The notes under the pieces were generated by a model that had not been told where the DNA came from, searched no databases, and saw nothing but the letters and a program-made list of their open reading frames with translations. This document shows positions 20,837 through 53,307 of a stretch of DNA of 58,941 nucleotides, in pieces. The translations under genes and the position numbers were made by a program. Origin of the DNA: a virus (Duplodnaviria; Caudoviricetes); the IMG/VR virus record IMGVR_UViG_3300025276_000037, positions 1 to 58,941 of that record; one strand, written 5' to 3'. Each line of letters opens with the position of its first letter. The stretch's first letter is position 1.

Positions 20837-22909
20837 CTACTGTTTTGTTTGATTTTTATCGGCGACTATGCCGTTCACAACCGGACTGTCACTGTAGGGG
20901 CCGCCGCTAAGGTTTGTTGGGTTTACTCCCCCTAACTCGTTTAATTTAGCAAGTATACCTGCATACCCAGCTATAACACCATCTGCCGCTGCATCTCTTA
21001 AAGCTATCATTGCTGACGTATCCTTCCCTTGCTGCTGCAACATCATTATCGAATCCTCGTAGGCGGCAAATACTGCTTCCTTAGCTTTAAGAATGTTTGC
21101 TTGAGCGGTAACGATAAGGGATAACACGTCTTTTCTTTGGGTGGCACTAGCCTTGCCTGCCACAGTTAGTTTATCCATTTCCGCTTGGGCTTCCGCTAGG
21201 TTGGCCTCCATCTTTCTAGCTATGGTCTTATCTTTTCGGTCAAGGTCTTCTCGTGCTGCTAACATGTCTTGTTGTGATGCATTACTAAAGCCCGCCACAG
21301 CCGCATTTAGTATTGAAGTTCCATTCTTACCTACGTTATCGTACATGCTCATACCTTTATCAGCTATTAGGCGATCCTGCTCTCTACCTTTCTGGCCTAA
21401 CGATTCAAGCCCAAGCATCTGTCCTTCTCTAGCTTTGGATTGCGCGTTTCTTACTTGCATTTGGGCTTGTATTCCCGAAGCAGCGCCGCCTTTACCCCTA
21501 CCTACATACGCAGCGAAGGCTTCGTCTTGCCTCGCTTTATCTGCTTTCGGGTCGTATTCCCCGTAAAAGTCCTGACGTGTTTGCCTATCGCGTGCGAAGG
21601 CCGCTTCTGTCGCATCTCTTTTATAGTACTTATCAGAGTCTGCACGCGCAGCTTCTTGTTCGGTTTTAAATGGTTGAGGGTTAACTTTACCATCTTCTTT
21701 AAGGGCACCAAGCCCTTGTAAGTTTTCCTGTGTTTGGTCTTGTGCTACCGAACCTAGGGCTAGCGGCCCAGCAGATTCACTTGCGTTAGCTTTTGCGGCA
21801 CCTAAAGCTGCATCGACCTTAGCGTAAGGGTCAACAGGGGGTTGTTGTTGAGCGGCAATACCAGCGGCATCGTCAGCGGCAGCGGCGTCGTCAGCGGCAA
21901 ACTGAGCATCCTCTAAGCCAAACTGAACGTCTTCATCAGCCATTGCCTTTTCTAATCTAGCATCGTTTTCCTGGTTTTCCTGTTTAGCGACACGTTCTTC
22001 TTGTGTCATGTACCGCTTACCGCCACCTTCCTTATCGACTAGTGGCCCAGAACCGTAGTTTGTAAACGCATCAATGGCAGTACCCGCAGTACGAGCATTT
22101 GGGTCTACATTTTTAGCGCGGAGTTTTTCGTTTATTGCCGCGTTATCTGCCGAGGGTATTCGGGGTCTGCCATATAGGTCTTCTGCCCCAGCGGCAAAAC
22201 CATCAAAACCATACTTAGTCTTTAAGAAGTCTACTATTACGCTATTGTTCTTAGAAGCCGCCGCCATAGCTTGCATAACTTGTTGGCTTAACTTACCACC
22301 CTGTGATTCCGCATACTTTTCTATTTGAGCGATATTACCTTTCGCAGAGAACCTATCCGCAGCTACATCACCACCTTTAGCAAACTGCGCACGCATAAGT
22401 CCACCGGCAGCCGCAGCTACCCCACCCTGCATAGGATTACCTTGTGGCATACCTTGTGGCATACCTTGTGGCATTGGTCGGCCTTGTGGCGTTGGTCGGC
22501 CTTGTGGTGCTCCGCCTAGCAGATTACCGATACCAGCTCCTTGTGGCTTAGTAGCCTGAGCAAGCATTTTCTGTTGGGCTTTCTGTTGCTTCTGTTGCTT
22601 CTGTTGTAGCACATCCCCAACTTGGCCAGTAACCTCGTTCTTAGTAAGAGCAGTTGCTTTCTCTTCTAGCTGGTCAACAATAGTCTTAGGGTTCTGCTGC
22701 TGCGCCAGCATCATCTGGTTCTTAGCAGCTTCTTTTTCACTAGTGATTTTTTGTAACGCTAGAGCGTCAATTAAGTCACTAGGGATATTTCCCATGCTAG
22801 GTTGTTTACCCATAGCCTGTTGGAGTTTGCCGGGATTACCCGCGTAAACACCTGCGGTTTTATCCACTGTGTCTAACATTCCTGCTATGCCGTTACCTGT
22901 GTATGCCAT
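20837..22909 (-). CDS. Internal virion/ejection protein
   Basis: 690 aa, Q/A-rich and helical, PQG repeats, AAAGGLM and FAKGGDV motifs; ejection-module position. Confidence 0.65.
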   Translation of the reverse strand: MAYTGNGIAGMLDTVDKTAGVYAGNPGKLQQAMGKQPSMGNIPSDLIDALALQKITSEKEAAKNQMMLAQQQNPKTIVDQLEEKATALTKNEVTGQVGDVLQQKQQKQQKAQQKMLAQATKPQGAGIGNLLGGAPQGRPTPQGRPMPQGMPQGMPQGNPMQGGVAAAAGGLMRAQFAKGGDVAADRFSAKGNIAQIEKYAESQGGKLSQQVMQAMAAASKNNSVIVDFLKTKYGFDGFAAGAEDLYGRPRIPSADNAAINEKLRAKNVDPNARTAGTAIDAFTNYGSGPLVDKEGGGKRYMTQEERVAKQENQENDARLEKAMADEDVQFGLEDAQFAADDAAAADDAAGIAAQQQPPVDPYAKVDAALGAAKANASESAGPLALGSVAQDQTQENLQGLGALKEDGKVNPQPFKTEQEAARADSDKYYKRDATEAAFARDRQTRQDFYGEYDPKADKARQDEAFAAYVGRGKGGAASGIQAQMQVRNAQSKAREGQMLGLESLGQKGREQDRLIADKGMSMYDNVGKNGTSILNAAVAGFSNASQQDMLAAREDLDRKDKTIARKMEANLAEAQAEMDKLTVAGKASATQRKDVLSLIVTAQANILKAKEAVFAAYEDSIMMLQQQGKDTSAMIALRDAAADGVIAGYAGILAKLNELGGVNPTNLSGGPYSDSPVVNGIVADKNQTKQ
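22436..22510. repeat. PQG-coding short tandem repeats (12- and 18-bp units)
   Basis: CCTTGTGG recurs 5 times; encodes APQGRPTPQGRPMPQGMPQGMPQG. Confidence 0.85.
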
Positions 22910-22935
22910 TGGGCTGCCCTATGTATTAGTTGTAT

Positions 22936-25029
22936 TTACGCTACGTTATCGAGATTAGTGTTTTGGTTAGCCGATGTATCACCTGCATCCGGCTCTGTTT
23001 GGTCATCGGGGGCAAATTGATTTTTCCAGAAATCCGTGATTTTATCCGCCCCGTATGTAGTACCAGCGTCAATCAGTCCGGTAAGCACATCAGCGGGGCC
23101 ACCTGTACCACCAAGTTTTTGGTACATACTGACAATATCCGCGTAGTCACTAGGCTGAGAATAATTATAATTCTGTGCTTCCACAGGTAAGCCTTGTAGT
23201 AACGAGCTAATATACTGGTTAGCGTTCCAATCAAAGTCACGCTCTTCTTCAAACTGATCTTTCGCCGCAGCTACAGACTCGGAGTAAATGTCACGCTCTG
23301 TCGCACCTAGGTCAGACTGTCGCTGTAAGGCATCTAAACCGAACTGGCGATCTTCCCCGAAAGACTTCTGTGCGTTACCAAACGCTGTGTTGTACCCTTG
23401 TGCAGTAATATCAGCCTGCTGCCGCGCCGAATCTCGTTGGAGCATAGCATTCATAATAGCGTTTCGAGAGCCGCCGAATGACCCCGACTGCGCTGCACGT
23501 ACGTTCTGTTCAGCCATCTGCCTATCAGCTTCTTCTTGTGCTACACGTAGCTGTGGGTCAAGAGAGCCTTGGAGGTAAGGATTCATATAGGCGTCTCTAC
23601 CTGCTTGGTCTAAAGCCCCAAACGAGCCTAGCCCTGAGCCAGAGGTATCTATGTTAGCGCCAGCGTCAAACGCGGCTTGTTGGTTGCCGGCAATACCGGC
23701 GGTTAACGGGCCGGTATAGGCTTGGTAGCCATCATCTACTAGGGCTTCGCCTCTACCAATCATGCCAGTAACAGTATCACCTACCCAGTTGGATAGAGAT
23801 GATTCCGCGCCTGTCTGCTTACCTAGCCCAGAATTATCGGTAACATTGATTTTTGGATCAACCCCCTGAGTAGCGTTACCCGTATCAACAACAGGATCGT
23901 CAGAATTAGCAGGAGCAGGATCAGCAGGAGCAGGATCAGCAGTGTTTCCATCACCGGTATTCATCTGCTGGACGTTAATAGGCTCGGCAGTTAAACCACC
24001 CTCTACAAACTTTTTGACTGCGCCGCCATGCGCATATGCGTTAGCTATACCACCTTGGGCCAGAACTTTCTTAGCGTCAATTTGTTCGCCTTGTTTTGGG
24101 TTACCCGTGCGTGTTTCGCGTACATTAGACATCATATCGTCTAACACCTTAGCACCTGCGTTAGAGCTACCGTTACCTAAGTGGCTTACAACATCCGCAG
24201 GAATAACAAACTCACCGTCACTCAAGGCAGCGGGTTGTACTCCATCTATATTAGAAGGTACTTTGTCAGCCATACCGTCTGTCATACCGTTTAGATAACG
24301 ACCACCAGCTAACTGCTGTACTCCGCCGCCCATGTTAAAGTTGGCGGAATCTTCTTCTTTTTTAGCATAAGGGGAAGCAGCTATACCGCCCATGTTGTAC
24401 TTGCTAACCTTACCACCGGCAGCCATATAGGGGCTGTAGCCCTCAGAAAACCCTCTAGCTTGGTTTGCTGCGATACCCGAAGCTACGTCTTGGTTAGAGT
24501 AGTCTTGAGCCATATTTTCTATAGCCCGACCCTCGTCCGTGTAGTTATTACCGTACACTTGGGGGTTTTCACCGGCGGTAGATAAGTACCCTTCTTCGGT
24601 GTAAGTCAGATTCTCGTCTTGGTCTTCTTTAGCTATTTGCCCACCTTCATAGTCTATGGTGGGTTTCGTGTATATGGTTGTATCGTCTTCGTACAATGTT
24701 TGGGGAGTAGACTCAATACCACTATCCCCACCTGCGTCTCTAAGATACCGAGTGTCAGAAAAGTAGCGTCTACCCATTGCGCCGGGCCTAACAGCACCAC
24801 GATTTTGCGCATCGGTATAGTTAACCCGCTCCATAATTTTTTTATAGTCGGGCACAGACCCTTGGTATCCTGAACGCTTAATCTCTTCGTCAGTAAACCC
24901 AGACTTGTTTATAAAGTACGAAGCGGCCAGAGCTTTAGCGTCTGAGCCTTGTTCTGACTTTAACCAGCCCCCTACTTTTTCTTTCGTAGTATCCCACCAA
25001 CTTACGTCAGTTGTATCTGTTTCGGCCAT
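22936..25029 (-). CDS. Internal virion / DNA transfer protein with GG motifs and LSDGEFV domain
   Basis: 697 aa; DGMAD.VP...AALSDGEFVIPADVV domain; C-terminal half with AYTGPLTA, YMNPY, FGGSR as in phage DNA-transfer proteins. Confidence 0.7.
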   Translation of the reverse strand: MAETDTTDVSWWDTTKEKVGGWLKSEQGSDAKALAASYFINKSGFTDEEIKRSGYQGSVPDYKKIMERVNYTDAQNRGAVRPGAMGRRYFSDTRYLRDAGGDSGIESTPQTLYEDDTTIYTKPTIDYEGGQIAKEDQDENLTYTEEGYLSTAGENPQVYGNNYTDEGRAIENMAQDYSNQDVASGIAANQARGFSEGYSPYMAAGGKVSKYNMGGIAASPYAKKEEDSANFNMGGGVQQLAGGRYLNGMTDGMADKVPSNIDGVQPAALSDGEFVIPADVVSHLGNGSSNAGAKVLDDMMSNVRETRTGNPKQGEQIDAKKVLAQGGIANAYAHGGAVKKFVEGGLTAEPINVQQMNTGDGNTADPAPADPAPANSDDPVVDTGNATQGVDPKINVTDNSGLGKQTGAESSLSNWVGDTVTGMIGRGEALVDDGYQAYTGPLTAGIAGNQQAAFDAGANIDTSGSGLGSFGALDQAGRDAYMNPYLQGSLDPQLRVAQEEADRQMAEQNVRAAQSGSFGGSRNAIMNAMLQRDSARQQADITAQGYNTAFGNAQKSFGEDRQFGLDALQRQSDLGATERDIYSESVAAAKDQFEEERDFDWNANQYISSLLQGLPVEAQNYNYSQPSDYADIVSMYQKLGGTGGPADVLTGLIDAGTTYGADKITDFWKNQFAPDDQTEPDAGDTSANQNTNLDNVA

Positions 25030-25031
25030 GG

Positions 25032-28000
25032 TTATATACCTAGTAGTTTCATTAATTCGTCGGTTTCATCCTCAATCAGACCGCCTTCGGCAGCGGCTCT
25101 AAGAGGAAGTTGTTGTGTTGCTGCCATTTCATCCTGTTTCGCTCTAGCGTAAGGACTTTGGTACAGCCCCCGTTGCTTATCAGTAGCAAAAGGACTATCG
25201 CCATATACATCGTACATATACTCAATGTTCGCAAGCTCTTGAGGAGTTTCTACACTAACTTGGCTCATAGCCTGCACTTGCTGCATTAGGTCACCGTATT
25301 CCTCTTTTTCAGCGTTTGCTCTATCGAGGGCTATCTGGGTATTTATGTCCGTTTGTATCTGGGTATTTATGTCGTTCTGCGTATCAAGGTCTTGTTGTCG
25401 CTTACGTTCCGCTTCTATGGCAGCTTGTTCTTGTGTGTAAGTATTTTGGTCGAATATATCATAAAAACCAGTGGTAGCAAACAGTGAATCCGTAGCTAAT
25501 TCACCTCCGTAAGTACCATAGTCCCCAGTTTGCACCGCAGTCAATAGGTCTATATCTGTCTGGTCTATAACCCCATCTGCGTTTACATCGTACTTTATCT
25601 CATTCTCAGCGTAGTTAGGGGCGTCTTCCCAAGGAACTGCATTGTAATTATCAATTATGCCGGTAACGGCGATAATATCATCCTCGGTAACTTCTGTACC
25701 TCTTTTACCTACTACAGCGCCGATTGCGTCCAACTCTGTCGAATCTACTGTGTCCATGTCCCCTATGTAGCCATAGATCGCATCGATAGCGAGCGTCACC
25801 TCGTCATTGATACCTTCTCCTGACTGAGCGTATAAGCCTGTCGCAGGGGAGGACTCATCAATATCTGGTGTAGATAGGTCGTCTTCTACCGCAGCGTTAC
25901 CTATTATTTCTTGGAGCGCAGTTATGGCTTCATCTGAAGACCCACCATTAGCAGCTAAGTCGTCTATTAAATCGTATAAGTCAGCTAGCTTACCTTCGTT
26001 TGTACTAACACGAGTGGTTAGCGCGTCTAAACTTGATCCAAGGCCAGATAAATCGTCAGCGTTAGTGTCAATCTGATCTTGTAAAGCCTCTACACTTATA
26101 CCCAGTGCATCCGCTGCTGCTAGCATAGCATCGGATTTAGCCTGCGCTGTATCTACACCAAACGCATCTATAGCATCGGCTAGTGCTTGTTGTAGAGCTG
26201 CTATCTCATCTTCGTTAAGCCCTACACGAGAGGTTAACCCATCTACATTTAGGCCAAGGCTAGATAAATTGTCAGCGTTAGTGTCAATCTGATCTTGTAA
26301 AGCCTCTACACTTATACCCAGTGTATTCGCCGCTGATTGTATAGCATCGGCTTTAGCCTGCGCTGTATCTACACCAAACGCATCTATAGCATCGGCTAGT
26401 GCTTGTTGTAGAGCTGCTATCTCATCTTCGTTAAGCCCTACACGAGAGGTTAACCCATCTACATTTAGGCCAAGGCTAGATAAATTGTCAGCGTTAGTGT
26501 CAATCTGATCTTGTAAAGCCTCTACACTTATACCCAGTGTATTCGCCGCTGATTGTATAGCATCGGCTTTAGCCTGCGCTGTATCTACACCAAACGCATC
26601 TATAGCATCGGCTAGTGCTTGTTGTAGAGCTGCTATCTCATCTTCGTTAAGCCCTACACGAGAGGTTAACCCATCTACATTTAGGCCAAGGCTAGACAAG
26701 GCATCGCTGTTGTCCCCAATTAACTTCTCTAATGCCTCTTTAGTAAGCCCTAACGCAGTGGCAGCGTCTTCCTTAGCCTGAGCTATGTCTCCAGCGTTCT
26801 CCCCTATGGCAAGGTCTAACGCAGCCTTTAAGTTGGAGATTTGCGTATCCGTATAGAGGTTAGCTGTGGTAAGCGTAGTCTGTAGGTCGGCAGTAAACTT
26901 ACTAGTATTAGCGGTAATTAAGCCTCGGAGCGTGCTGTCTGTAAGCCCTAAATCGCTAGCAACTTTGCTTATAGCTTGGTCTATAGACCCGCCACCAGCT
27001 AACGCACCTGTTAACTTAGCCTCTAAAGAAGTTACAGTCTCTGCAAGCCCTGAAACTTCCCCAACTAAAGTGTCGTAGTTAGCCTGTTGAGCCGCATCTA
27101 CTGCGCCTTGCAAGTCACCTTGAGGGTTGAGCCCCATAAACTGATCTATTTCAGCTTGGGTAGGAGTGTACCCACCATACGCAGCTTTTACCTCGGCCTC
27201 TGTGACAGTAGCAGCGTCTACTCTGCTGGCTAAATCGGCGGGGGTGTACTGGCCCGCTAATCCAAGACCTAATAGCTGGTCGTCAGTTATTACGTACTCA
27301 CCATTATTGTCTACTTCGTATGCGTCTACCCCTGCTATTTTATCTAGCTCAACCCGGGCATCTTCCGCTACTACGTAGTTGTTCCCTACGTGAGTTTGTA
27401 CTAGACCCGCTAACGTGCTGTCGTCTATAACTCCTGTAGGTATGCCCGCATTAGCAGGGTCAAAATAGGCGTACTTACCAAACTCAGCGTTTACCTCCTC
27501 CTGCGTGGTTATGTATTGGTCTATTAACGGGTCTTCTACGTTATCGACTAACGCACCCTGCATGGCGGGAGTGCCTGCCGCGCCTTTGTTTACCGTTAAA
27601 GCAGTGACTAGTGACGCGTACGCTGTCGTGTTAGATGGGGTTATACCCTGAGCTGCTAAAGCATCTTTTGCTTGTTGCGTAGTAAACTGCCTGTCAGCTA
27701 TCCACGCGTCACGTCCGGCGGAGTCTAAATTCTCAACTGCGGCTATATCGGCGTTGCTAGCTGCCGTCCACCCTTTGCCAAGTAAGTCTGTAGCAACTTG
27801 TTTCTGTGCGGTAGTCCTAGTAGCGTTCTGGAACGAGGAGGTTATAGTGTTTAGCCCCGTCCTGTCGTTCCAATCAATAGAGCTAGAGTCAAAGTTATTT
27901 ATATCCGATTGGTCATACCCTTTGCTAAGTAGGTGGGCCTCAATGTCAGCTCTAGTAAGTACGTTATCCGTTATCTCTTTAGACAGCCCAGACTGGGCAA

Positions 28001-31000
28001 CATTCTTACCTTGAGTAAACCCTGCGGCGAGTAATTCACTATCTGTATACCCTGTTTTTGGGTCACCATTTGCGTTGTAAAGAGTGCTTTCATTTACGCC
28101 TAACTCCGCCGCTAACCTAGCGCGAATCTCGTTGTAAGTAACTTCATTCTCGTTACGGTACGTCGCCGTTATGGACTCTGTGGTGTCTGCGTTAAACCCT
28201 AGCGACCCACCAAAAATATCCGAAGTGTTAGGAACCGCAAAGCCTTCGCCTTGTAAATAAGCATTTATTTCAGCTTCACTTACAGTAGCGTCATCTAAAC
28301 GGTCAGTTAGGCTGGGAGTAGTTGCTCCATTAGTATACGTGAAGCCATCTTGCCAATAGTTACCTGTGTACGCACTGAGGTCTAACCCCTCAGAAATTGC
28401 CTGCCCTACTGCCGCTGCATCTGCAAACCCGAAGTCCGTTGGGTTAGTAATCATAGCTGCCATTACTTCGTCTTGAGTAACAGTAGTCTCGTTGTAGAGG
28501 TCTAGTGCATCACCAGTTAAGTTGGCTATATCTTCGGGTAGTACTGTAGCTTCGTTACCCACACCAACTAGTCGGCTAGCTATATTACCACTAGGTATCC
28601 ACCCCTCGCCGTACCCAAGAACATCTCTAAAGTAAGCGTTAGCTTCGTCTCCAGTAACAGTGCCTTCTTCAAACGCAGTTCTTTGCTCACCGTCTGTGGC
28701 GTACGCGCCTGTTTTTACTAGGTCAAATGCTCCAGCGTATTTAGCTTCTAAGTCTTCTATAGACAAGCCTACATCTGCTGGGAACGCAGCGCGTAGATCG
28801 TCAGCTACTTCACTTCTGGTGTAGCGCCTAGCGTCTATGTCGCGTTGTATTGCTTGTTTTCTTTGGTCGGCGTTTAGCCCTTCAAACCCTGCTCTACCTC
28901 GTCCAGTGGAGAACCACGATATAAGTCCCGCACGCGCTGCTTCGGTATACGCTCCACCGTCTTGGGTAGCATCGTCCATTGCAGCTTCTATGTCGGCTCG
29001 CATTGACGCTACTGCTTCTGCTTCTACACGCTCTGCTTCTACACGTGCATCTCGTTGTGTTATGGTTTCATTAGCTGTTTGGTAACCAGATGTAGTTGTA
29101 CCTAGGTCAATGTCTAAACCTGTACCTGCAAACGCAAGTAATTCTTCGTTGGTCAAACCCGTAGTATCGTAGTCTAGTCCGTCTAAATACGACTTAACAT
29201 CGGCGGCGTTAGTTATATCGCCTTGTAGCTTAGTTTTACCCGCTGAATCAGCGTTTGCATCACCGTTTAACTGTACTATCTGGTCTAGGTAAGCACCGTA
29301 AATCTCTTCGTCTATATTGTTAGAACTTATACCTAATTCACGACCTAGGTCAGCTTTAGCCTCTGCACGTGTGTACTGCCTAGGGGCTAAGTATGTGTCT
29401 ACTCCACCTTTTATTCCTGTGTCAGGTTTGTTTTTCCCAGTAAACGCATCGTAGTTAAAGTCCTCTGGTACGGTAAACCCTTTAGCTTCTAAGGCAAGTT
29501 TAACCTCAGCTTCAGTAACGGTATTAGCGTCACGCCATGCTTTAGTAGCTGTATCTAAGTTTGCTTGCGGTTTCTTACCCGTATACTGTGAGTAATCAAA
29601 GCCTTCTGGTACAACAAAATCCTGATCTTCTAACGACTTCTTAACTTCAGCTTGAGTAACAGTATTGTCGTCTACGTATTGAGTTATACCTGTATTGTTG
29701 TTTAGGTAAGCGGTAATCTCTGCTTCGCTAGGGTTATAGTCACCAAACGCAGTTATAGTATCTTGTCGTTTTTTGGCCGCCGCTGCTTCTGCTTCTACAC
29801 GTGCATCTCGTTGCGTTATGGTTTCATTAGCTGCTTGGTAACCGGCTGTATCTGCATCAAGGTCAATGTCTAAACCTGTACCTGCAAACGCAAGTAAATC
29901 TTCGTTGGTCAAACCCGAAGTATCGTAGTCTAGTCCGTCTAGGTACGACTTAACATCGGCGGCGTTAGTTATTTGCTCCTGTACTTGTAAATCACCTTGC
30001 GTGTTAGTCCTAGCGCCGGTCATGTCTACCATACCGTCTAGGTAATTTTCGTACGTTACTAAGTCATCGGCAGTAAGTGCTCTACCTAACTCGGTAGCCA
30101 AAGCTGCTTCCGCATCACCACGTGTGTACTGTAGGGGAGATAGGTATTGATAAACTTCGGTAGCTAAATCAGTACTATCTTTATTCTTACCTGTGAACTG
30201 GGTAACGTCAAAGCCTTCAGGTATAACGTACCCTTGACCTTGTAAAGACGCTATAGCTTCAGCTTCGGTAGTGGTGTTGTCGCCGCGCCAACTTTGGGTA
30301 GCAGCGTCCAAACCCGATTCAGGTTTTTTGCCCGTAAACGCCGAGTAGTCAAAGTCAGCAGGTACGTTAAACCCTTGAATTGCTAACCTAGCCTTAACCT
30401 CAGCTTCGGTAATAGTGTTAGCCTCACGCCAATTCGCAGTTTTTGCGGGTAAGCCCGTCTGGTCATACTTACCAATAAACGGCGTGTAGTCAAAGTCAGC
30501 AGGTACAGTAAACCCTTCAGCTTCTAAAGCACTTTTAACCTCAGCTTCAGTAACAGTGTTAGCGTCGCGCCAACTCTTAGTGGCGTTGTTTAGCCCTGAT
30601 TCAGGCTTCTGCCCAATAAACGGCGTGTAGTCAAAGTTAGTAGGTACAGTAAACCCTTGATCTGTTAATGACTTCCTAACCTCAGCTTCGGTAATAGTGT
30701 TAGCGCCTGCGTAAGTTTTTGCAGTGGCCTCTAATCCTGAGTCAGCTTTGTTTTTACCAATAAACGGCGTGTAGTCAAAGTCAGCAGGTACAGTAAACCC
30801 TTCAGCTTCTAAAGCACTTTTAACCTCAGCTTCAGTAACAGTGTTAGCGTTGCGCCAACTCTTAGTGGCGTTGTTTATTCCTGAGTCAGCTTTGTTTTTA
30901 CCAATAAACGGCGTGTAGTCAAAGTTAGCAGGTACAGTAAACCCGGCAGCCTGTAACGCACTTTCAACCTCAGCTTCAGTAACAGTGTTAGCGTCGCGCC

Positions 31001-36976: not shown

Positions 36977-36985
36977 ACTGCGCTC

Positions 36986-38545
36986 CTAGTTAAGGTCAAC
37001 AAAACTGCCATTGGCATATAGTTTTAGCTTATGGTCATCGGTGTCGTAGTATACCTGCCCATTTGCTGGAGAGCTAGGAGCAGCACTCTGCGCTGGGAAC
37101 TGAACTCCGCCGTTAAGTGGCTGTGTCACTAGATCACCAAGTTGCTGTGCGCCAGCTACAACTTTACTATACCTTAAATTACCGTCTTCAGAGCCGTCAG
37201 ACGCATCGCCTATTTCTGTATATACACTGGCGTACAAGATTTTCTCTGGGCCACCCGATGAGAAGCCACGGTCGTTACTACCGTAAAACTCTATTTTCCC
37301 TAAGTCTTCTCCATCTGCTCCGTTAGATTGAGAACGATAGAGTTCAATAATAGGACTAGCGTCAGCACTATTTTCATTATTTCTTATAACAAGGTCAGCA
37401 CTTGTACTATTGCTAGTAATAGTTAAAGGGGCAGTTTTTACTTGCACGCCCGTATTATCTATTATTACTGCCTGTGCAGTTGAACCTGCTTGTGTAGTCT
37501 CAACTATAAACCTACCATCTTCTGAACCGGCAGTTGAATCTACGATTTCTCCGTAAATAGTAGCATACTGGATTTGCTGAGGGCCACCACTAGACAAACC
37601 ACGGTCATTAGCACCGAAGAACTGTATTTCCCCTATCTCGTCACCATCATTACCGCCACTAGAACCGTGTGCCCGGTTTAACTTGATAATAGGGCTAGCA
37701 TCGGCACTACTTGCTTCATTATTGGTTATTACTAAGTCAGCGTTTGTATCGCTACTTGTTATAGTTAAAGGGGCAGCAGCAGTAACGTCACCTGTAACAG
37801 TAAGGTCACCATTAACAGTAGTGTCGCCAGCGGTGAATGCTACGGAAGAATTTGTAACCGCTAAAGTACCGCTTGTAAGGTCTGGGAGATATATATCGTA
37901 AGCACCATTAGCTACAGTAGCATTTGGAGTGGCGTTTAACTTAAATGATTTTTGAGCCGCATTGGGACTGAAAAACTGCATATACCCATTACTGTATGAC
38001 ATTAAGATAGGATTGCCATAACCCATTTGCAGACCGTAAGAGAATAGGCTCATCGCTGGGTCTTCTTGACCACCACCATGGCCTAACTTAAATTTAAGAG
38101 CACCTTGTTCGTTACCATCAACGGGGTACTCTGTTTCGGCGTAAATTCCAGCGTATTCAAATTTTTCTGGCGTACTAGCGTTATTATTGGTACCAAAGAA
38201 TTTTACCGCCCCTATTTCAGAACCACTTGCCGCAGGTGTAGGACTATCTCGAAATAGTTCTATACTTGGATTTTCAGTAGTGCTGTTTGGGTCTATGCTT
38301 GTGAGTTTTAATGTATTGGAATTGACGTTAAGTTCGCCATTAATTGTAGTAGCGCCAGCAGTAACCCCACCAGTAACAGTAAGGTCACCATTGATAGTAG
38401 TGTCGCCTAGGTCTTGACGCAAGTGCTCATCTAGCTGGTTAAAGTACAAACGCAGGACGCTAAACGTGCGTTGGTACAGGCTCTGATTGTACTGTGCAGG
38501 CGGTATCGGCAGGGCTGGGGACTTAAACTTGACGTTATTAGCCAT
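36986..38545 (-). CDS. Tail fibre / receptor-binding protein
   Basis: N-terminal P.LP..P..Y...LRLYFNQLD anchor, GDLTVTG beta repeats, triplicated module, C-terminal APSSPANGQVYYDT. Confidence 0.75.
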   Translation of the reverse strand: MANNVKFKSPALPIPPAQYNQSLYQRTFSVLRLYFNQLDEHLRQDLGDTTINGDLTVTGGVTAGATTINGELNVNSNTLKLTSIDPNSTTENPSIELFRDSPTPAASGSEIGAVKFFGTNNNASTPEKFEYAGIYAETEYPVDGNEQGALKFKLGHGGGQEDPAMSLFSYGLQMGYGNPILMSYSNGYMQFFSPNAAQKSFKLNATPNATVANGAYDIYLPDLTSGTLAVTNSSVAFTAGDTTVNGDLTVTGDVTAAAPLTITSSDTNADLVITNNEASSADASPIIKLNRAHGSSGGNDGDEIGEIQFFGANDRGLSSGGPQQIQYATIYGEIVDSTAGSEDGRFIVETTQAGSTAQAVIIDNTGVQVKTAPLTITSNSTSADLVIRNNENSADASPIIELYRSQSNGADGEDLGKIEFYGSNDRGFSSGGPEKILYASVYTEIGDASDGSEDGNLRYSKVVAGAQQLGDLVTQPLNGGVQFPAQSAAPSSPANGQVYYDTDDHKLKLYANGSFVDLN

Positions 38546-40872
38546 TATCGTCTTCCGTCTGGGCGCATATCAATTCGGGGATACCCGAGCTGCCACTTAA
38601 CACCAAGGTCAGTAGACTCGACTTTTAGCGACATTTGTCTGCCACGTAGGCGCATGTTTAGGTGTGTGGTGTAAGGTTCTACAGTAATTGTAGCCCCCTG
38701 TACTACTGTGCCTGTATTACTGCCACCTTCTGACGTTGGAGTGTTATATCCAGAACCTGAGCTATCTAACGGGTTTAACGTCATATCTACGCTAGGAGCG
38801 CCGGATGTAGACCCTTGGAAGGTAATATCGGGCAGCATACGCCATACAAACGCGAATTGGTGCCCGTCTTGTAGATCAAACTCAGAAGACGTAATAGAGG
38901 CAGTTATGGCCGTTGTAGTGGTAGTTTCGCTATCATCCACGCCAATTTCGTGGTCTACGAGGTTTTTAGTGTATGTAGCAGCTAATGGTAAGCTACGTAT
39001 GCCCGAGTTCTCCCACGCAGTACGCGCCATAGTGCCGTGATACCACAGGTTTTCTAAGTAGTTATAGGTTACGTATAGGTCGTTGGTTGTACTGCCCGCG
39101 CTAGGGTAAAACCACCAAATTTCGTTAAACTCTTCGTTGGTGCCAGAAACTATTTGTTGGGCTTGTGTAGTCTCAAAGCTCTCAAATACGTGCCTATGTA
39201 GCGTGCAGGGTAGTGGTTTTACGTTACCATCATAGGTATAAAACTTGTCTTTACCCATCCAAAACGCTATACCGTTAGCATATGATACGGCGTTTGGACT
39301 AGCTATAGACACGTTTTCACCTACTATTTGCGCACCCCAGCCCTCTAAACCAAGCAATTGTAGTGCGTATAAAGCGGCATCTGTCCAAATAAGTATCTCT
39401 TGGCGGGCTTGTATACCCGTTATAATCTCACCACCCCTAGATAGTTTTAGGCTGCCAGCTACGTTCGTAGTAGTAGGCGCCCAGTCCCCAGCGTCTTCTT
39501 GGTCTGACCAACGTACTAGTAGTGGGTCTAATGTGTTTGTAGTGTCTAAATACGCTGTCGTACCTAAACAGAACACGAACCGGCTAATGTCTGATACCAG
39601 TACCCTGTTAGCCTTAGCGGGCACACTAAGTGAGTTTACTCTACTAGACAACAAGACAGCACGTGTAGTTAAGGTATTTGCGCCGTCCCAATAGAATAGT
39701 GGCCCACCCCTAAAGTTAGTAATTATGTCTTCACCAAAGTTAGCTTGGCTCCACAAACGTATAGTAGCTTCGGTGGTAAGGCCAGTGCTCCATAACCCGC
39801 CTCCGTAGTATCCTGCGCCCCAACCAGCCTGAGCAGTTTGTATTTCAGCGCCTGAGTTTATCTGGTAAGTAGCTACTACAGAACTACCCCCGCCGAAGCC
39901 GTCACCTGTTGCGGGGTCATTACTAGCCGTAGTGTCAATTGTATAAGAATCAACAAAGGAAAAGGTTAGAACAGCCCCGGTAGATATGGTCTTAGATGTA
40001 CCTATTGTAACAATAGTGTCATCTTCGCTACCCGCTACGCCAGTTACACGCTCACTAATAGCTGTACCATCAGTTTCCGCGCCAGTCATTAGCATACCTA
40101 TTGATATGGCAGAAGCAGCGCCGGTAATAGTATTTATTTCTACAGTAGCATCGCTGGAGCCATCTGCCACAGCTTTAGTTTCGGCTAGGTTGTAGGATAT
40201 TTGGTATTCTTTGTTTATTACACCGGCTGCTATACCGTTAGTAGCACCTGCACCAGAAAATGTAACGAAATCGTTGTTTTTATACCCAAGGTTGGCGTCT
40301 ATAACTCGAATAATAAAGTGAGTAGCCGCGCTAGTATCGTCGGTAAGTAGTGGGTTTGCCCCTAGAGTTATAACTGCATTGAAGTGTAATATCGCGTTTA
40401 TGGCTATGCTTTTAGAGGCGCCTATGGTTATGCTACCTTGACTAGCTACGGCGGCAACAGTGACACTTATGGCAGAACCACTAGCATCTGTGCCAGTCAT
40501 AATCATACCTGTACGTACGGTGCCTACATTGTTCTCTAGGGTTACTGTGGTAGAGCTAGAAGTAGCGGCTTTTACTGTCGCAGAGGCTTGGTCAAGTGGA
40601 GTAACGTCATTGTACTCCCCACCAGACTCTACATAGAACTTAGTGTTCGTACCAACACCTACATATAATTTGCTCGCTAAAGTACGCCAGCTATGAATAG
40701 AGCGGGAGATACCGTCAAACACGTTGTTAGATAGGCGCGCCCACCCACCGATCTTTTCCGGCAGACCTTTACGGAACCGTACTTTATCGGAGTCGTTCCA
40801 GCCACCTTCAGTGCTGTAGCGCGTACCTTCTTTGTTTACGCCGGGTTTTAGTTCTAACTTGCTTAATGGCAT
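38545..40872 (-). CDS. Tail hub / head closure protein (P22 gp10-like)
   Basis: KPG.NK..T.Y..EGGW..SDKVRFR.G.PEKIGGW; WSQANFGED; RWSDQE; RLRGRQ...RIDMRPDGRR. Confidence 0.8.
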   Translation of the reverse strand: MPLSKLELKPGVNKEGTRYSTEGGWNDSDKVRFRKGLPEKIGGWARLSNNVFDGISRSIHSWRTLASKLYVGVGTNTKFYVESGGEYNDVTPLDQASATVKAATSSSTTVTLENNVGTVRTGMIMTGTDASGSAISVTVAAVASQGSITIGASKSIAINAILHFNAVITLGANPLLTDDTSAATHFIIRVIDANLGYKNNDFVTFSGAGATNGIAAGVINKEYQISYNLAETKAVADGSSDATVEINTITGAASAISIGMLMTGAETDGTAISERVTGVAGSEDDTIVTIGTSKTISTGAVLTFSFVDSYTIDTTASNDPATGDGFGGGSSVVATYQINSGAEIQTAQAGWGAGYYGGGLWSTGLTTEATIRLWSQANFGEDIITNFRGGPLFYWDGANTLTTRAVLLSSRVNSLSVPAKANRVLVSDISRFVFCLGTTAYLDTTNTLDPLLVRWSDQEDAGDWAPTTTNVAGSLKLSRGGEIITGIQARQEILIWTDAALYALQLLGLEGWGAQIVGENVSIASPNAVSYANGIAFWMGKDKFYTYDGNVKPLPCTLHRHVFESFETTQAQQIVSGTNEEFNEIWWFYPSAGSTTNDLYVTYNYLENLWYHGTMARTAWENSGIRSLPLAATYTKNLVDHEIGVDDSETTTTTAITASITSSEFDLQDGHQFAFVWRMLPDITFQGSTSGAPSVDMTLNPLDSSGSGYNTPTSEGGSNTGTVVQGATITVEPYTTHLNMRLRGRQMSLKVESTDLGVKWQLGYPRIDMRPDGRR

Positions 40873-40881
40873 TGTTACCTC

Positions 40882-41232
40882 TTAATAAATCCACAGCACA
40901 GGTACAGTATTGCGTGTGTCTACGTGAACAAAAGTCTTAGCAACACCAATACCACTAAACCCTAACTCGAATGCTTTTTTAGCTAACAAGAATCTTTGTG
41001 CCCCGCCGCTAACACGTATATCTGCGGCAATGCCTTTACTGTGCATCCCCGGTGCGGCTTTCTTAGCCTCAATAGAATGCTTAGGGCTTCTGTACCCAGA
41101 GGTAATCGTAAACGAAAACCCACACGCTTCGCGTAACGAATCTAGCGCATGAATAAATTCATCCTGCATATCGTTCTCACCAGTCTCTTGGCAGTCAAAT
41201 TCTTCGATTTTAAAGTATTTAAAGTTACTCAT
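40882..41232 (-). CDS. Endolysin, peptidase M15A family
   Basis: YFK.EEF.C, ITSGYRS, SKGIAADI preceded by H, FVHVDTR; start at ATG 41232. Confidence 0.9.
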   Translation of the reverse strand: MSNFKYFKIEEFDCQETGENDMQDEFIHALDSLREACGFSFTITSGYRSPKHSIEAKKAAPGMHSKGIAADIRVSGGAQRFLLAKKAFELGFSGIGVAKTFVHVDTRNTVPVLWIY

Positions 41233-41701
41233 CTGGCTTATGACTCGCACCGAAGTAAAAAGAAGTTATAGCTGATACTACACCCCCCATGTAACCTAGG
41301 ATTAGGCTTACTATAGTGTCGCTATTAGCATCAGGTGGCTGGATAGTAACAAGAAAAATATACCCAACAAAACCCACCAGAGCGACAAGAGCAACGACTC
41401 TCGGCGTCCAATCACCTTTGTGTGCCTGTCTCGCATCTTTGACATCTTGAGCCTCCAGAGCAAATACATCGACTTCTAGCTCTGCCATCTTCTTCTCGAA
41501 GTCTAGCTCGGCTTTTTTAATCTCAACAAGTTGCTCAGGTGTGGCAGATTGCATCGCTGTCTCGATAGACTTAGCGTCTGACTTACAGCCTAGCACAGAG
41601 GCAATTGCTTGTGCAGCAGTGCCCCCAAGAGGGCCAGCTAGTGCCGTACCAAGTGTAGGGGCAACCGCCCCAATTAAGCCTTTAATAGCTTTAAAATTCA
41701 T
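41225..41701 (-). CDS. Holin (3TM, gene-transfer-release type)
   Basis: APTLGTAL.GPLGG, D..DAR, two TM segments, FYFGAS; adjacent to the endolysin. Confidence 0.75.
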   Translation of the reverse strand: MNFKAIKGLIGAVAPTLGTALAGPLGGTAAQAIASVLGCKSDAKSIETAMQSATPEQLVEIKKAELDFEKKMAELEVDVFALEAQDVKDARQAHKGDWTPRVVALVALVGFVGYIFLVTIQPPDANSDTIVSLILGYMGGVVSAITSFYFGASHKPDE

Positions 41702-41702
41702 T

Positions 41703-41867: not shown

Positions 41868-41872
41868 AGCCC

Positions 41873-43676: not shown

Positions 43677-43684
43677 TACTACCT

Positions 43685-45951: not shown

Positions 45952-45952
45952 C

Positions 45953-46630
45953 TTATGCTACTCCTACCGGTGCGCGTGCGGGTGCAGCACGGTACGCGTC
46001 TGTAGATAACCTACCTCCTAGGGAGCCTAACAGCTTTAAAGCTGTTACGAACTGTTGATTGTACATGGCTACTATATCTGCCTCAGCTTTCATAAATCTA
46101 GCTGCTTCTACTAGCGCGCCGTTAAGTAGCACACTCTCAAAATTACTAGACAGCCACGTAGTGCCACTATCCGCACCTGCCGTAAGTGAGGCTGGGTAGG
46201 CTTTGTAGGTGTGTATTAGAGATAGTGCGTCACTTGGAGTAGGTGCTACAGCAATAAACAAAGTTTCAGCACTGCCACTTATCCCGCTCTCGCCGAACTG
46301 CGCGTAGTACACAGGGTCGCCTGTAGTATCTTGGTCTGGGTATGCTTCTAATAAGAAGCTGTTGTCTTTCTCTATCAGGTACGTAACAACGTTGGCCGCA
46401 TCTTTTGTAGCAAGGGTAAGGGTACTTAGATAGCCACTAGGCGTTGCTGTTAGGGGGTTTCCTACGGATAAGCTAGCTGAAGTCTCTGTATACGTGTTAG
46501 CAGGTAAATCAATAGCTGTGTATATAGCTTGCTCCGCTTGCGTTATAAACAAATTAAGCTGGAAATCTGAAAACGTGTTCTCAGTAACGCCAGCTATATT
46601 AGTCTTCATGTCTGCGTATGTCATGCTCAT
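45953..46630 (-). CDS. Head-tail adaptor / tail tubular protein
   Basis: MTY..., FI..AE..I, G.P.YYA, APTP, TWLS.N...LL.G.LVEA..FMK. Confidence 0.72.
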   Translation of the reverse strand: MSMTYADMKTNIAGVTENTFSDFQLNLFITQAEQAIYTAIDLPANTYTETSASLSVGNPLTATPSGYLSTLTLATKDAANVVTYLIEKDNSFLLEAYPDQDTTGDPVYYAQFGESGISGSAETLFIAVAPTPSDALSLIHTYKAYPASLTAGADSGTTWLSSNFESVLLNGALVEAARFMKAEADIVAMYNQQFVTALKLLGSLGGRLSTDAYRAAPARAPVGVA

Positions 46631-46971
46631 TATGTCGTCACCGTTACTGTGCCTATCTTGGCATTACCTACTAATGTATTGGGTATGTCTATGTTGTTGC
46701 CACCACCTACAGGCCGAAAACCATACTGAGTAACCCTACTCTCAGCTAGGGCGTTGTCTGGGCGTGGGTTACGTATCGCCTGTGGGTCAGTTACTACAAC
46801 TTCCCCTAACTTGTTCTGTGGGTGGTCTTTCTCCCAACAATATGGGCATACCATTAAATGTGTGTTCTTGCTCTTAATAACCAGAGCTTTGAGCTTCTTT
46901 AACTTGTACTGAAACCCACAACGGTCGCATATAGCGATAGCTCGTTTGGCGGAGGCGAATTTATTAGCCAT
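46630..46971 (-). CDS. Zinc-binding late protein
   Basis: AICDRCGF, VCPYCWE.DHPQ, DPQA.RNPRPD; TAATG coupling on both sides. Confidence 0.75.
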   Translation of the reverse strand: MANKFASAKRAIAICDRCGFQYKLKKLKALVIKSKNTHLMVCPYCWEKDHPQNKLGEVVVTDPQAIRNPRPDNALAESRVTQYGFRPVGGGNNIDIPNTLVGNAKIGTVTVTT

Positions 46972-47729
46972 TAGCAACGACCTATACTAGGCACGAAACG
47001 CGCTGAAGTTTTCTCCCTGTCTTCTTGCGAAGCGAGTGCAAATTGCTCTTCATATTCTTGCTTTAGCATAGGTATTCTAGGGGCTAGTTCAGGTACTTTC
47101 ATAGCTATATAGTATGCCAGTCCTGCTACCGCGCATGGGAGGAACCTGAAAGGCATGTCTGCTGTCTGCGCTCCCGTACCCGCGTCTTGTATACGGCGCA
47201 TACGGTAGTAATATATTTGGTAAGTACTGCTTTTGTCCGGCACCGGCCATACGGTTAAGAACTGTACGTTTGCGCCTATAGTGGTAGGAGTCGGTGTAGC
47301 GCCACCGGTGTGGTCGCCGCTTTGGTACGTGCCTGCTTGCCCTAGTCTATGGACTAATGCTTGTAGTGGTCTACCTATAGATAGTTTGTTGGGTATAGCT
47401 GCGTACGTAGGTAAGCTAATTCTGTTTAGCGACAGGTCAGATTGCGATGACGCGTTACCTGCGTTTGTACGTATGTTCATCTCACATACGTCTATCGTGT
47501 CAGCGGGTAAAGAATACGTAGCGTCGTCTTTAGTAAGGTTGATAAAACCTTCGTCTATCGTCCACAGGTTAATCCCACGATTAGCCCACTCAATGGTAAG
47601 CATGTTCATGGAACGTCTAGCCGTACGTAGGTCGTAACCCGTGCGCAACTCGCGCCCAGCGCGTTCCCACGCCTCTTCCGCTATCTCTGTAAATTGCGGG
47701 TTAAATGTAGCAGTGCCTGAAGTAGCCAT
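46971..47729 (-). CDS. Head-tail adaptor/connector protein
   Basis: MATSGT..F, EEAWER.G, ARRS.N.L..EWANRG.NLW, WPVPD, PFRFLPC..AGLAYY. Confidence 0.72.
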   Translation of the reverse strand: MATSGTATFNPQFTEIAEEAWERAGRELRTGYDLRTARRSMNMLTIEWANRGINLWTIDEGFINLTKDDATYSLPADTIDVCEMNIRTNAGNASSQSDLSLNRISLPTYAAIPNKLSIGRPLQALVHRLGQAGTYQSGDHTGGATPTPTTIGANVQFLTVWPVPDKSSTYQIYYYRMRRIQDAGTGAQTADMPFRFLPCAVAGLAYYIAMKVPELAPRIPMLKQEYEEQFALASQEDREKTSARFVPSIGRC

Positions 47730-48022
47730 TATTTAGTTCCACATCCGCATTTGTGTCGTCGTTTACGAGCTAAGCCACCGCCCCCAAACTTTACTGTCGC
47801 GGGTTTAGTGTTCTTAACTACCGTTTTGCCCTTTGCGCCTTCCCGCTTCTTTTTCTTAGCAGTGGCTGCACGTTGGCCTTTAGTTAGCGAGTTCGCTTTG
47901 TTGCGCGGTAAGCAACGGTCTGGGTTCTTCTTGTCTTTTGATGTGCCACACTTACCTTTGACTTTACCATCAGTACCGACACGAACCCAGTCTTGGTCAA
48001 CCCATTTCTTTAGATCGCCCAT
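47729..48022 (-). CDS. Small basic protein (DUF5872-associated type)
   Basis: LKKW....WV...CG.....CLP; Lys/Arg-rich; FGGGGLA near the C-terminus. Confidence 0.7.
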   Translation of the reverse strand: MGDLKKWVDQDWVRVGTDGKVKGKCGTSKDKKNPDRCLPRNKANSLTKGQRAATAKKKKREGAKGKTVVKNTKPATVKFGGGGLARKRRHKCGCGTK

Positions 48023-48183
48023 TATTTCTTCTTACCTTTAGAGCCTTTAGCGTAATTAGGGTCTTTGCAGTACTTAGAAGCTGCCATATTAGCATATGCA
48101 CTAGGGTAAGTATCGAAGGTACGTTTCGCCCACGACTTACCCTTAGAGCATATTTTGCCACCAGATTTATAGTAGCGGCGCAT
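48022..48183 (-). CDS. Small basic protein (53 aa, YPSAYAN, DUF5872-like), not in ORF track
   Basis: MRRYYKSGGKICSKGKSWAKRTFDTYPSAYANMAASKYCKDPNYAKGSKGKKK; TAATG-coupled to the next gene. Confidence 0.75.
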   Translation of the reverse strand: MRRYYKSGGKICSKGKSWAKRTFDTYPSAYANMAASKYCKDPNYAKGSKGKKK

Positions 48184-48185
48184 GG

Positions 48186-48752
48186 TTAGCGCATCTTACA
48201 CTTACGAACGCCTTGCTTAGCAATGCCCGCACCGCGAACCTTACCACCAGACTTGTACGTCTTAGCCATACCGCCGTCCATCATTTTCTTCTTAGCTTTA
48301 GGTACTTTACCGCCTTTCTTCATAGCGGGAGCGCCAGCAGGAGCAGGAGCACCACCCATAGGGGCACCACCGCCACCAGCCATAGCCTTCTTCTTCATCA
48401 TTTCTTCCATCATTTTCTTTTTCTTCTGCTCTTCCGTCATAGGCATAGCAGGGGCACCACCACCCATAGCAGGGGCAGCACCAGCGCCGGGCATAGCCAT
48501 TCCGCCAGCCATATATTTTTTAGTTTTCACTTTACCACCTTTTTTATAGTCAGATTTTTTCATGCCTACCATCTTTCCTGTCTTAGGATCAGTACCCATG
48601 TCTAAATCTTGTTTACGTTTAGTTTCCGCAGAGCCAGCTTTTTTGCTGAACTTAGGGTTAGGAAGGCCCGGATTACTTGTCGTGCCAAATTCTTTTAGTT
48701 TCTTTGCGTAGTCTTTCGAGTCTTTTTTACCCTTACCACTTACTTCTGGCAT
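48186..48752 (-). CDS. Lys/Met/Gly-rich low-complexity protein with five GG motifs
   Basis: AGGAG RBS; ends RGAGIAKQGVRKCKMR. Confidence 0.75.
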   Translation of the reverse strand: MPEVSGKGKKDSKDYAKKLKEFGTTSNPGLPNPKFSKKAGSAETKRKQDLDMGTDPKTGKMVGMKKSDYKKGGKVKTKKYMAGGMAMPGAGAAPAMGGGAPAMPMTEEQKKKKMMEEMMKKKAMAGGGGAPMGGAPAPAGAPAMKKGGKVPKAKKKMMDGGMAKTYKSGGKVRGAGIAKQGVRKCKMR

Positions 48753-48761
48753 GTTAATCTC

Positions 48762-49070
48762 CTAACATTTCCAACGTTTGCGCGCTTGGCGAAGCCTTGA
48801 ATTGGGGTCTTTCGCTGCCTTCGGAAACTGTTTCATTTGTCCGGCAGAACGCGCACAGTACGACTTTCGACGTGATGCGCGCTTGCCAGTTGGTTTGTCT
48901 TCAGTTACTGCTGTCTTTAATTTACTACCGGGATTATCTTTACGATACTTAGCTACACCTTTGGCGGTCATGCCAGCACCAGATTTGGTAGGGCGTTTCT
49001 GCCCGCCGCCTATGGTGTGGCCCTTCATAGAGCCTTTGACCTTACCGCCTTTTTTGTAGTAAGCGCGCAT
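48762..49070 (-). CDS. Small basic protein (DUF6321-like)
   Basis: GMTAKG...YR..NPGSKLK...RRKSYCARS...PNSR...ARKRWKC. Confidence 0.75.
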   Translation of the reverse strand: MRAYYKKGGKVKGSMKGHTIGGGQKRPTKSGAGMTAKGVAKYRKDNPGSKLKTAVTEDKPTGKRASRRKSYCARSAGQMKQFPKAAKDPNSRLRQARKRWKC

Positions 49071-53297: not shown

Positions 53298-53307
53298 GAT
53301 GTTCTCC

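Follow-up and report, generated by a model that had tools for sequence, protein, structure and literature searches.

What might a seven-residue string built around two glycines be doing in seven otherwise unrelated late proteins of one phage? The question is raised by IMG/VR virus record IMGVR_UViG_3300025276_000037, a HTVC023P-like podophage record that was analyzed over its complete length of 58,941 bases (the window; completeness 95% by CheckV). Its closest cultured relatives by DNA are HTVC023P-type pelagiphages, and weaker matches of the capsid gene lead to the Roseobacter phages CRP-901/902 and to Planktothrix phage Pag-Yong1. The element is a short linear motif of seven residues with the form [M/Y/F]-[A/K]-x-G-G-x-[V/I/A], and an earlier note on this DNA had proposed that it marks cargo for loading into the procapsid, or is a maturation cleavage site, or both. 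Here we show that chance is excluded and that the motif is a real, selected element common to unrelated proteins. Proteins of the head module and of internal type make modular use of it, in regions of predicted disorder, often at a terminus and often as ordered pairs. Our leading, though tentative, interpretation is that it serves as a multivalent peptide that docks or anchors cargo inside the head.

The motif and its carriers in the window

All copies cited in the earlier note exist when checked against sequence and coordinates, and all of them lie on the minus strand. Four of the carriers are small proteins of 53-188 amino acids (aa) that are very rich in Lys, Gly and Met and have isoelectric points (pI) of 10.1-11.2. 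The 102-aa protein (gene 48762-49070) has YKKGGKV at residues 5-11 (49038..49058), and the 53-aa protein (gene 48022-48183) has YKSGGKI at the same residues, 5-11 (48151..48171). Six copies are found in the 188-aa Lys/Gly/Met-rich protein (gene 48186-48752), at residues 69, 80, 124, 144, 157 and 166 (48237..48548); one of them, MAGGGGA at 124, comes in addition to the five listed earlier, and the copy at 166 is followed by RGAGIAKQGVRKCKMR at the C-terminus, a unit that recurs in relatives. The 97-aa protein (gene 47729-48022; phrog_23735) carries FGGGGLA at residues 79-85 (47768..47788).

The three large carriers are acidic, with pI of 4.1-5.5. The 3829-aa protein (gene 25032-36521) has AAEGGLI at residue 3810 (25074-25094), within a conserved C-terminal tail (25035..25214) that continues with an acidic stretch and finishes ...ELMKLLGI. 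In the 697-aa protein (gene 22936-25029), three upstream copies (MAAGGKV at 202, YNMGGIA at 211 and FNMGGGV at 231; 24319..24426) and three downstream copies placed nine residues apart (LAQGGIA at 323, YAHGGAV at 332 and the looser FVEGGLT at 341; 23989..24063) enclose residues 240-318 (24076..24312), the core of what we refer to as the LSDGEFV module, which reads LAGGRYL...TDGMAD...LSDGEFVIPADVVSHLGNG... and continues into a helix. The 690-aa protein (gene 20837-22909) contains a pair, AAAGGLM at 166 and FAKGGDV at 176 (22364..22414), after a Pro/Gln/Gly-rich stretch.

These counts were compared with those in whole-protein and local 30-residue shuffles, 2000 of each. The nine copies in the four small proteins compare with shuffle means of 0.18-0.81, and nine was reached in 0/2000 shuffles, the local ones included. 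For the 697- and 690-aa proteins together, the strict pattern occurs five times against 0.37-0.45 expected (reached in 0-1/2000) and the looser pattern used in the earlier note seven times against 1.5-1.9 (reached in 3/2000). With that looser pattern there is no enrichment in the 3829-aa protein (3 matches vs 2.7-3.1) or in the remaining 48 open reading frames (ORFs; 8 vs 7.3-8.1), and the entire proteome gives 27 matches vs 11.9 +/- 3.4 in per-protein shuffles. The claim of a motif common to seven proteins therefore needs to be divided: the excess of counts is confined to six of them, whereas the C-terminal copy of the 3829-aa protein, at background by count, is supported by the conservation of its tail in relatives. 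The major capsid protein and the portal have no copy and the large terminase has two matches, in agreement with the earlier observation that capsid, portal and replication proteins show no such clusters.

That the carriers are otherwise unrelated is borne out by an all-against-all BLASTP comparison of the seven, which returned solely short local matches centered on the motif segments. The 102-aa and 53-aa proteins have only their first 11 residues in common, and their family profiles start after that stretch. The Gly pairs of the motif are coded by GGT or GGC and never by GGAGG, and the same peptides are written with differing synonymous codons, which indicates that selection acts at the level of the protein. 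A Shine-Dalgarno-like RNA signal, with Lys-Gly-Gly written as AAGGAGG, was considered as an alternative and is ruled out by the same two features of the codons.

Carriers in related phages

As a sample of relatives we took 80 loci whose capsid protein is 75-95% identical to that of the window. All 80 have a variable set of small Lys-rich proteins encoded from the capsid/decoration genes to the adaptor. Among the 267 unique proteins of this kind, the strict motif occurs 149 times in 116 proteins, compared to 6.4 +/- 2.5 after shuffling, and the 880 other ORFs of the same loci contain 84 copies vs 28.9, so that enrichment over shuffled controls is found in the window and in its relatives alike. 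The motif also emerges without a preset pattern: in 391 unique Gly-Gly contexts, the residue three before the first Gly (position -3) is Met, Tyr or Phe in 50% and the second position past the pair is Val, Ala or Met in 47%. By place, 25/149 copies fall in the first 12 residues and 97/149 in the last 40; a Gly-Gly lies within the last seven residues of 35/267 proteins, and many carriers end 1-5 residues past the pair. Copies often stand ahead of a basic unit (...ADGIAxKGKTKG... or the C-terminal unit of the 188-aa protein) or right before small domains, and copy number shifts fast among close relatives.

Consecutive copies are spaced by 8 residues in 46 cases and by 9 residues in 27, i.e. in 73/169, and the arrays are mostly pairs, not long runs. 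The pairs are ordered, with M-A-x-G-G-[I/L]-[A/V] first and [Y/F]-x-x-G-G-x-V second. In 109/133 unique pairs the second copy has Tyr or Phe at -3, and the first mostly has Met there and Ile or Leu past the pair.

The exact YKKGGKV coding pattern was found in at least 120 viral stretches. From 80 of these we collected 84 ORFs, 77 of which have at least 10% Lys and 42 of which have two or more copies. The extreme carriers are Lys/His/Met-rich proteins of 400-630 aa with 5-7 copies. Two further proteins, of 60 aa (L170, 4276-4455, minus strand) and 97 aa (L234, 481-771, minus strand), consist of nothing but the motif in its basic form, repeated every 11 residues. In distant loci the carrier is again found in the head-assembly cluster: a 628-aa protein with seven copies (L164) occupies the interval from capsid/decoration to adaptor, and in another locus (L217) the carrier adjoins a scaffold-like gene.

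The 102-aa protein belongs to DUF6321 (PF19846; residues 32-100, E=4.4e-13, 50.1 bits vs a cut-off of 28.5), with YKKGGKV falling ahead of the domain, and its HTVC023P homologue gp43 has FKRGGDV at residue 12. In the 53-aa protein the match to phrog_27331, which covers a small Cys-containing domain, begins at residue 9, and relatives of this protein have the motif immediately before that domain. Relatives of the 97-aa protein present FGSGGLA, MREGGLA and FDNGGLA at the same position. The 188-aa protein is predicted to be disordered (Atlas model with a predicted local-distance difference test score, pLDDT, of 0.46). Pfam (E<=0.01) gave no family for the 188-, 53- and 97-aa proteins or for ten multi-copy carriers elsewhere, and the KGG repeat (PF10685) was unmatched in these. 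Two relatives have related architectures: P0139 (571 aa) is a fusion of DUF6321 with the small Cys-containing domain (...PSAYA...) found in the 53-aa protein, and the DUF6321 relative P0241 (201 aa) begins MRxYYKKGG like the two small proteins of the window.

A separate feature of the small Lys-rich head-module proteins is their last residue, which is Cys in 61/267 vs 3/880 of the other ORFs (L082-L161), at an overall Cys content of 1.1%. In the window the 102-aa protein terminates ...RWKC and the 188-aa protein ...RKCKMR. The terminal Cys suggests a disulfide, a metal site or a covalent link.

In the 697-aa family the motif is not a simple tag but a fixed part of a highly conserved, apparently disordered module. 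A search with residues 190-350 scored 8000 candidate proteins, of which 7218 reached E<=1e-3. In an alignment of 74 sequences, mostly with 36-50% identity to the query, 39 positions within residues 243-317 are invariant. Conservation extends over the flanking copies: in the copy at 231, 72/74 rows retain G235 and 71/74 retain G236, and -3 is Met, Tyr or Phe in 67/74, followed by Ala or Asn. Past the core, the first downstream copy (323) has Met or Leu at -3 in 71/74 and G327 in 74/74, the second (332) has Tyr or Phe in 74/74, G335 and G336 in 74/74 and Val or Ile in 71/74, and the third (341) has Phe in 65/74 and G344 in 69/74. AlphaFold2 gave a mean pLDDT of 53 for residues 190-360 (40 sequences) and of 57 for the full protein (74 sequences), with values below 50 at residues 199-282 and 313-405. 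The module region is modeled as one helix (residues 289-308) amid predicted disorder, with no assignable fold, and the N-terminal (~52-195) and helical C-terminal (~405-620) parts are moderately confident.

Pfam, PHROG and NCBIfam contain no model over the LSDGEFV module of the 697-aa protein, and NCBIfam run on seven proteins gave no relevant match. There was no usable match in the PDB by sequence (best E=0.029, to a lectin, with the single 697-aa query and E=1.1 with the profile) or, using the low-confidence model, in Foldseek (best E=3.5). Residues 472-593 weakly match phrog_4287, 'DNA ejection protein' (E=4.5e-4). By language-model features, the nearest named cluster to the module is crAss cargo at 0.79, which is below 0.9 and a lead only; another nearest named cluster in the protein atlas, DUF6496, scored 0.76 and is also a lead only. 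Complex prediction for the 697-aa protein and the C-terminal 110 residues of the 3829-aa protein scored 0.00 against a mark of 0.32 in a run without controls and speaks neither for nor against binding. A search of bacterial genomes returned only 16 loci, most of which are short contigs from metagenome bins, and gave no host clue.

Two cultured phages are informative about the downstream copies. In Caulobacter phage GB2A (L162, 2459-5202) the module is the last part of a protein whose annotation reads 'tail length tape measure protein' and which ends two residues past a Gly pair, and the next gene is the counterpart of the C-terminal half of the 697-aa protein. The 697-type gene of Planktothrix phage Pag-Yong1 (L163, 8410-10254) is split at the same place, and its protein ends where the pair would start. 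Because the gene is naturally split there in both phages, the downstream motifs mark a domain boundary.

Two observations on this family lie apart from the motif. The module has invariant Ser, His, Asp and Lys residues, and the idea that it may have a catalytic or self-processing role comes from these. Some module homologues of more than 1220 aa (P0277, P0281-P0283, P0285, P0327, P0329) have Pfam matches to sigma-70 region 3/4 or to other helix-turn-helix families, which hints that some such internal proteins could bind DNA or host RNA polymerase.

The neighbors of the 697-type gene keep the motif as well. In 80 viral loci with a 697 homologue there is a common order: a variable large upstream protein, the 697 family, the 690 family and a protein of ~2100-2600 aa. 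The motif in its loose form, usually as a pair after a Pro/Gln-rich stretch, is present within the first 260 residues in 50/51 of the 690-family homologues adjoining a 697-family gene. The upstream protein ranges from a few hundred to 3829 residues, and the motif lies in the last 40 residues of 46/70 unique tails vs 62/1360 (4.6%) internal control 40-mers from the same proteins. In an alignment of 43 tails the Gly pair is the sole pair of columns conserved at >=90%, with a terminal stretch of acidic character and an amphipathic ending (...LLxLLG) after it. Since the upstream tails keep the Gly pair, AAEGGLI of the 3829-aa protein is a real conserved element, though unremarkable by count. Conservation across distant homologues is seen in the 697 family, the 690 family and the upstream tails.

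Late-gene order around the carriers

The late genes of the window lie on the minus strand, and 32 late proteins were compared with each of Pfam and PHROGs; the 19 early genes, on the plus strand, are outside these scans. From the right end, the order is large terminase (56463-58037), portal (53893-56451), a Cpn10/GroES gene that adjoins the portal gene (53308-53706), a scaffold-like protein of 353 aa (52299-53360), the major capsid protein of 300 aa (50247-51149), proteins of 180 and 162 aa with no assignment (49578-50120 and 49070-49558) and the four small basic proteins of 102, 188, 53 and 97 aa (47729-49070). There follow two SU10-type adaptor paralogues (46971-47729 and 45953-46630), which are in tandem with a 115-aa ORF between them, then an M15 endolysin (40882-41250), a virion structural protein of 775 aa (38545-40872) and the consecutive 3829-, 697-, 690- and 2170-aa proteins (14315-36521).

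Judged by gene position in the window and in distant loci, the carriers always fall in the head-assembly cluster or in the internal-protein block, and they form two classes. One comprises small, very basic, fast-changing proteins with genes from capsid/decoration to the head-tail adaptor. The other consists of large acidic proteins of internal or ejection-like type, encoded in a conserved run, namely the tail of the variable giant protein and the 697 and 690 families.

The 2170-aa protein that ends this run (14315-20827, minus strand) contains an LPD39 domain, and the PHROGs it matches are DarB-like antirestriction and other giant 'polyvalent' ones. Its sole motif-like string, FYLGGPA, is kept in relatives, lies inside the antirestriction/polyvalent-matched region and is probably unrelated to the motif. 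In the 3829-aa protein, segments 3292-3351, 3364-3423 and 3436-3513 (within ~3290-3515) each weakly align to residues 312-384 of the 690-aa protein; these weak matches, whose E-values come from a seven-sequence database, suggest a ~70-residue internal repeat that the two proteins may have in common.

Candidate roles and comparison with known systems

The features of the motif that lead us to favor docking are its modularity, its place in predicted disorder, its frequent terminal position and its ordered pairs, since these typify peptides that fold onto a partner. In the mechanism we propose, each copy would be a weak docking peptide, a short hydrophobic strand between glycine hinges, that attaches to a conserved site, the same for all carriers, in the procapsid or the internal core; this site could be the capsid inner face, the scaffold, the portal or another internal protein. 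Several copies would provide avidity. The motif would in this way load cargo into the head and keep it there, the Lys-rich bodies of the small proteins would lie along the packaged DNA, and the cargo proteins would be released at ejection. We infer the virion location, the receptor and the binding mode of the carriers. As for the original suggestion of cargo and/or cleavage, its first half is compatible with a selected protein-level element whose carriers belong to the head cluster or resemble internal and ejection proteins, and its second half is disfavored for the reasons given below.

Several points weigh against docking. The compared loci are mutually related, so their counts are not independent events. 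The strict motif is optional in the DUF6321 family, being present in 10/150 best representatives (when present, mostly just ahead of the domain), many DUF6321 genes belong to T4-like cyanophages, and HTVC023P itself has few motif copies. A single common receptor is an assumption because the flanks differ by class (basic, neutral or acidic). In the literature we found no paper on the motif, on DUF6321 or on an LSDGEFV-type string, and a keyword search of the HTVC023P-type pan-genome paper (PMC9599517) and the CRP-901 paper gave no proteomics and no motif.

Among the alternatives, chance can be given practically no weight. Gly-rich low-complexity proteins might be expected to yield such a pattern, the earlier note's pattern is loose (27 matches proteome-wide for ~12 expected) and the 3829-aa protein and remaining 48 ORFs are at background; against this stand the local 30-residue shuffles that never reach the count of the small proteins, the position-specific conservation in homologues 36-50% identical and the 23-fold enrichment in relatives. 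It is possible, but doubtful, that the motif is a structural 'sticker' repeat that acts without any receptor, the Gly pair forming a turn between hydrophobic strands and the whole serving in self-association, compaction or DNA condensation in the capsid. The basic proteins would then act like protamines or phiX174 J, described as binding DNA and entering the capsid along with the genome (PMC13386984). Regular spacing by 8-9 residues, entire proteins made of 11-residue repeats, the very high Lys, Gly and Met content with predicted disorder, and a copy number quick to change among close relatives are all as a sticker would have them. However, the motif is invariant in acidic, non-repetitive proteins, single copies occupy exact places (in the upstream tail ~20 residues from the end, or right before small domains), and a two-copy unit that is ordered and directional argues for a defined binding geometry rather than generic stickiness.

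Maturation cleavage at or after the Gly pair, by an unrecognized phage or host protease that would trim tags and free the LSDGEFV module and basic peptides in the head, seems unlikely. The best single argument for it is the 697-type gene that is split at the downstream motif in GB2A and Pag-Yong1, as cutting the fused form there would yield the same two products, but this gene fission is equally compatible with a flexible docking linker. The copies at residues 5-11 of two small proteins have the size of a removable N-terminal signal, and the cutting of basic, DNA-bound core proteins at Gly-Gly is known from adenovirus (PMC4246237). On the other hand, the sole protease family found in the Pfam and PHROG scans of 32 late proteins each is the M15 cell-wall peptidase, in line with the earlier failure to identify a prohead protease. 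The 300-aa capsid protein has a separate scaffold-like neighbor and is without a long N-terminal extension. A cut would remove almost nothing where carriers end 1-5 residues past the pair, and would reduce the 8-9-residue pairs and the 60-aa protein of 11-residue repeats to tiny peptides. The hydrophobic residue, moreover, stands three before the first Gly, vs two in adenain, C39 and ubiquitin-type sites. Very improbable, to our minds, is a link to chaperonins, in which Gly-Gly-hydrophobic copies would mimic the mobile loop of a co-chaperonin, bind host GroEL and tie the folding or assembly of cargo to the phage GroES. The Cpn10 gene does adjoin the portal gene, and GroES is listed as a core gene of HTVC023P-type phages in the pan-genome text (PMC9599517). 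The mobile-loop region of the phage Cpn10 reads ...EVETEYEGGLIKTD..., and its ...YEGGLIK... is near the tail copy AAEGGLI, with EGGLI common to the loop and the C-terminal tail of the 3829-aa protein; many 690-family copies are also GGIV or GGII followed by an aromatic residue. Yet the hydrophobic residue at -3, the best-conserved feature of the motif, is off by one in the Cpn10 loop, and the basic copies (GGKV) have no hydrophobic run past the pair.

Returning to docking, a bolder form of it, which we regard as speculative, is that the motif could be a general 'address and clip' code in a large clade of uncultured aquatic podophages, with the LSDGEFV module as the hub that reads or organizes the clips in the core. 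Any carrier, basic or acidic, small or of 3800 residues, would then go into the procapsid and be held on one conserved site; the scale may be judged from the LSDGEFV module alone, with more than 7000 protein clusters. If true, the sequence by itself would be enough to predict head cargo, and a tag of 7-16 residues could serve to package foreign proteins. How proteins are chosen for the head interior is understood in very few tailed phages, essentially through the targeting sequence of T4, and the motif offers a checkable hypothesis on cargo choice in an abundant marine phage lineage. It also draws attention to the LSDGEFV module as a widespread, unannotated segment of ~80 residues that has 39 invariant positions yet is predicted to be disordered, and to the fast-changing Lys-rich head-module proteins, many with a terminal Cys, and their possible role in the organization of packaged DNA or in early infection.

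How does the motif compare with systems already known? Internal proteins of T4 share a short capsid-targeting sequence, which is confined to the N-terminus and is cut off by the prohead protease at a site different from the motif here. As in T4, a short modular peptide is common to unrelated proteins, with two copies in the window at residue 5; here a head location is suggested by gene position. Unlike in T4, no protease besides the M15 cell-wall peptidase was found among the late proteins scanned, the sequences are dissimilar, and the majority of copies lie within the protein or at its C-terminus, frequently as pairs, so that a general N-terminal placement is not what we find either in the window, with its two copies at residue 5, or in relatives, where the last 40 residues hold 97 of 149 copies and the first 12 hold 25. 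Sites cut by adenain, a clan CE cysteine protease, have a hydrophobic residue at P4, and C39 leaders have one two before the pair and form an N-terminal leader ending in Gly-Gly. The motif resembles these processing sites, and ubiquitin-like ones, in having a Gly pair preceded by a hydrophobic residue; it differs from adenain sites in that this residue would be at P5 if the cut follows the pair, and from both C39 and adenain sites in that copies are at extreme C-termini, internal or in tight pairs. Neither a clan CE protease (Pfam) nor a C39 peptidase/ABC exporter (Pfam/PHROG) was matched among the 32 late proteins of each scan.

The large carriers resemble podophage core and ejection proteins (T7 gp14-16, P22 gp7/16/20) and tape-measure C-termini in being syntenic large late proteins beside tail genes, in the weak PHROG match in the C-terminal half of the 697-aa protein and in the module that closes the GB2A tape measure. 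They differ in that there is no significant sequence or fold match to solved ejection proteins, the model being of low confidence, and neither the motif nor the LSDGEFV module is described for podophage ejection systems in the literature searched. In crAss-like phages, cargo proteins are carried in the head and leave it at ejection, and this kind of cargo (PF25725) is the nearest cluster to the 697-aa module, again as a lead only, given that Pfam finds no such domain in the 697-aa protein. In RTX beta-rolls the unit is nine residues long, has another Gly and an Asp beyond the Gly pair, and is repeated in long tandem runs. The motif is like RTX in having a Gly pair about every 9 residues with a hydrophobic residue between, and unlike it in that the further Gly and Asp are absent from the motif profiles and that the copies mostly form pairs.

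The DNA-binding J protein of phiX174-like Microviridae uses its hydrophobic end to hold the inner face of the coat protein. The four small proteins fit J in size and charge, and J is the best analogy, in a works-like sense only, with the motif in the putative role of the anchor. J differs in coming from T=1 viruses with single-stranded DNA, and the motif is carried by large acidic proteins as well. Contigs of 4-6 kilobases with YKKGGKV were considered as possible Microviridae and set aside, as their ORF sizes do not fit. T4 targeting, phiX174 J and adenovirus core processing therefore share with the motif a logic rather than the defining features tested.

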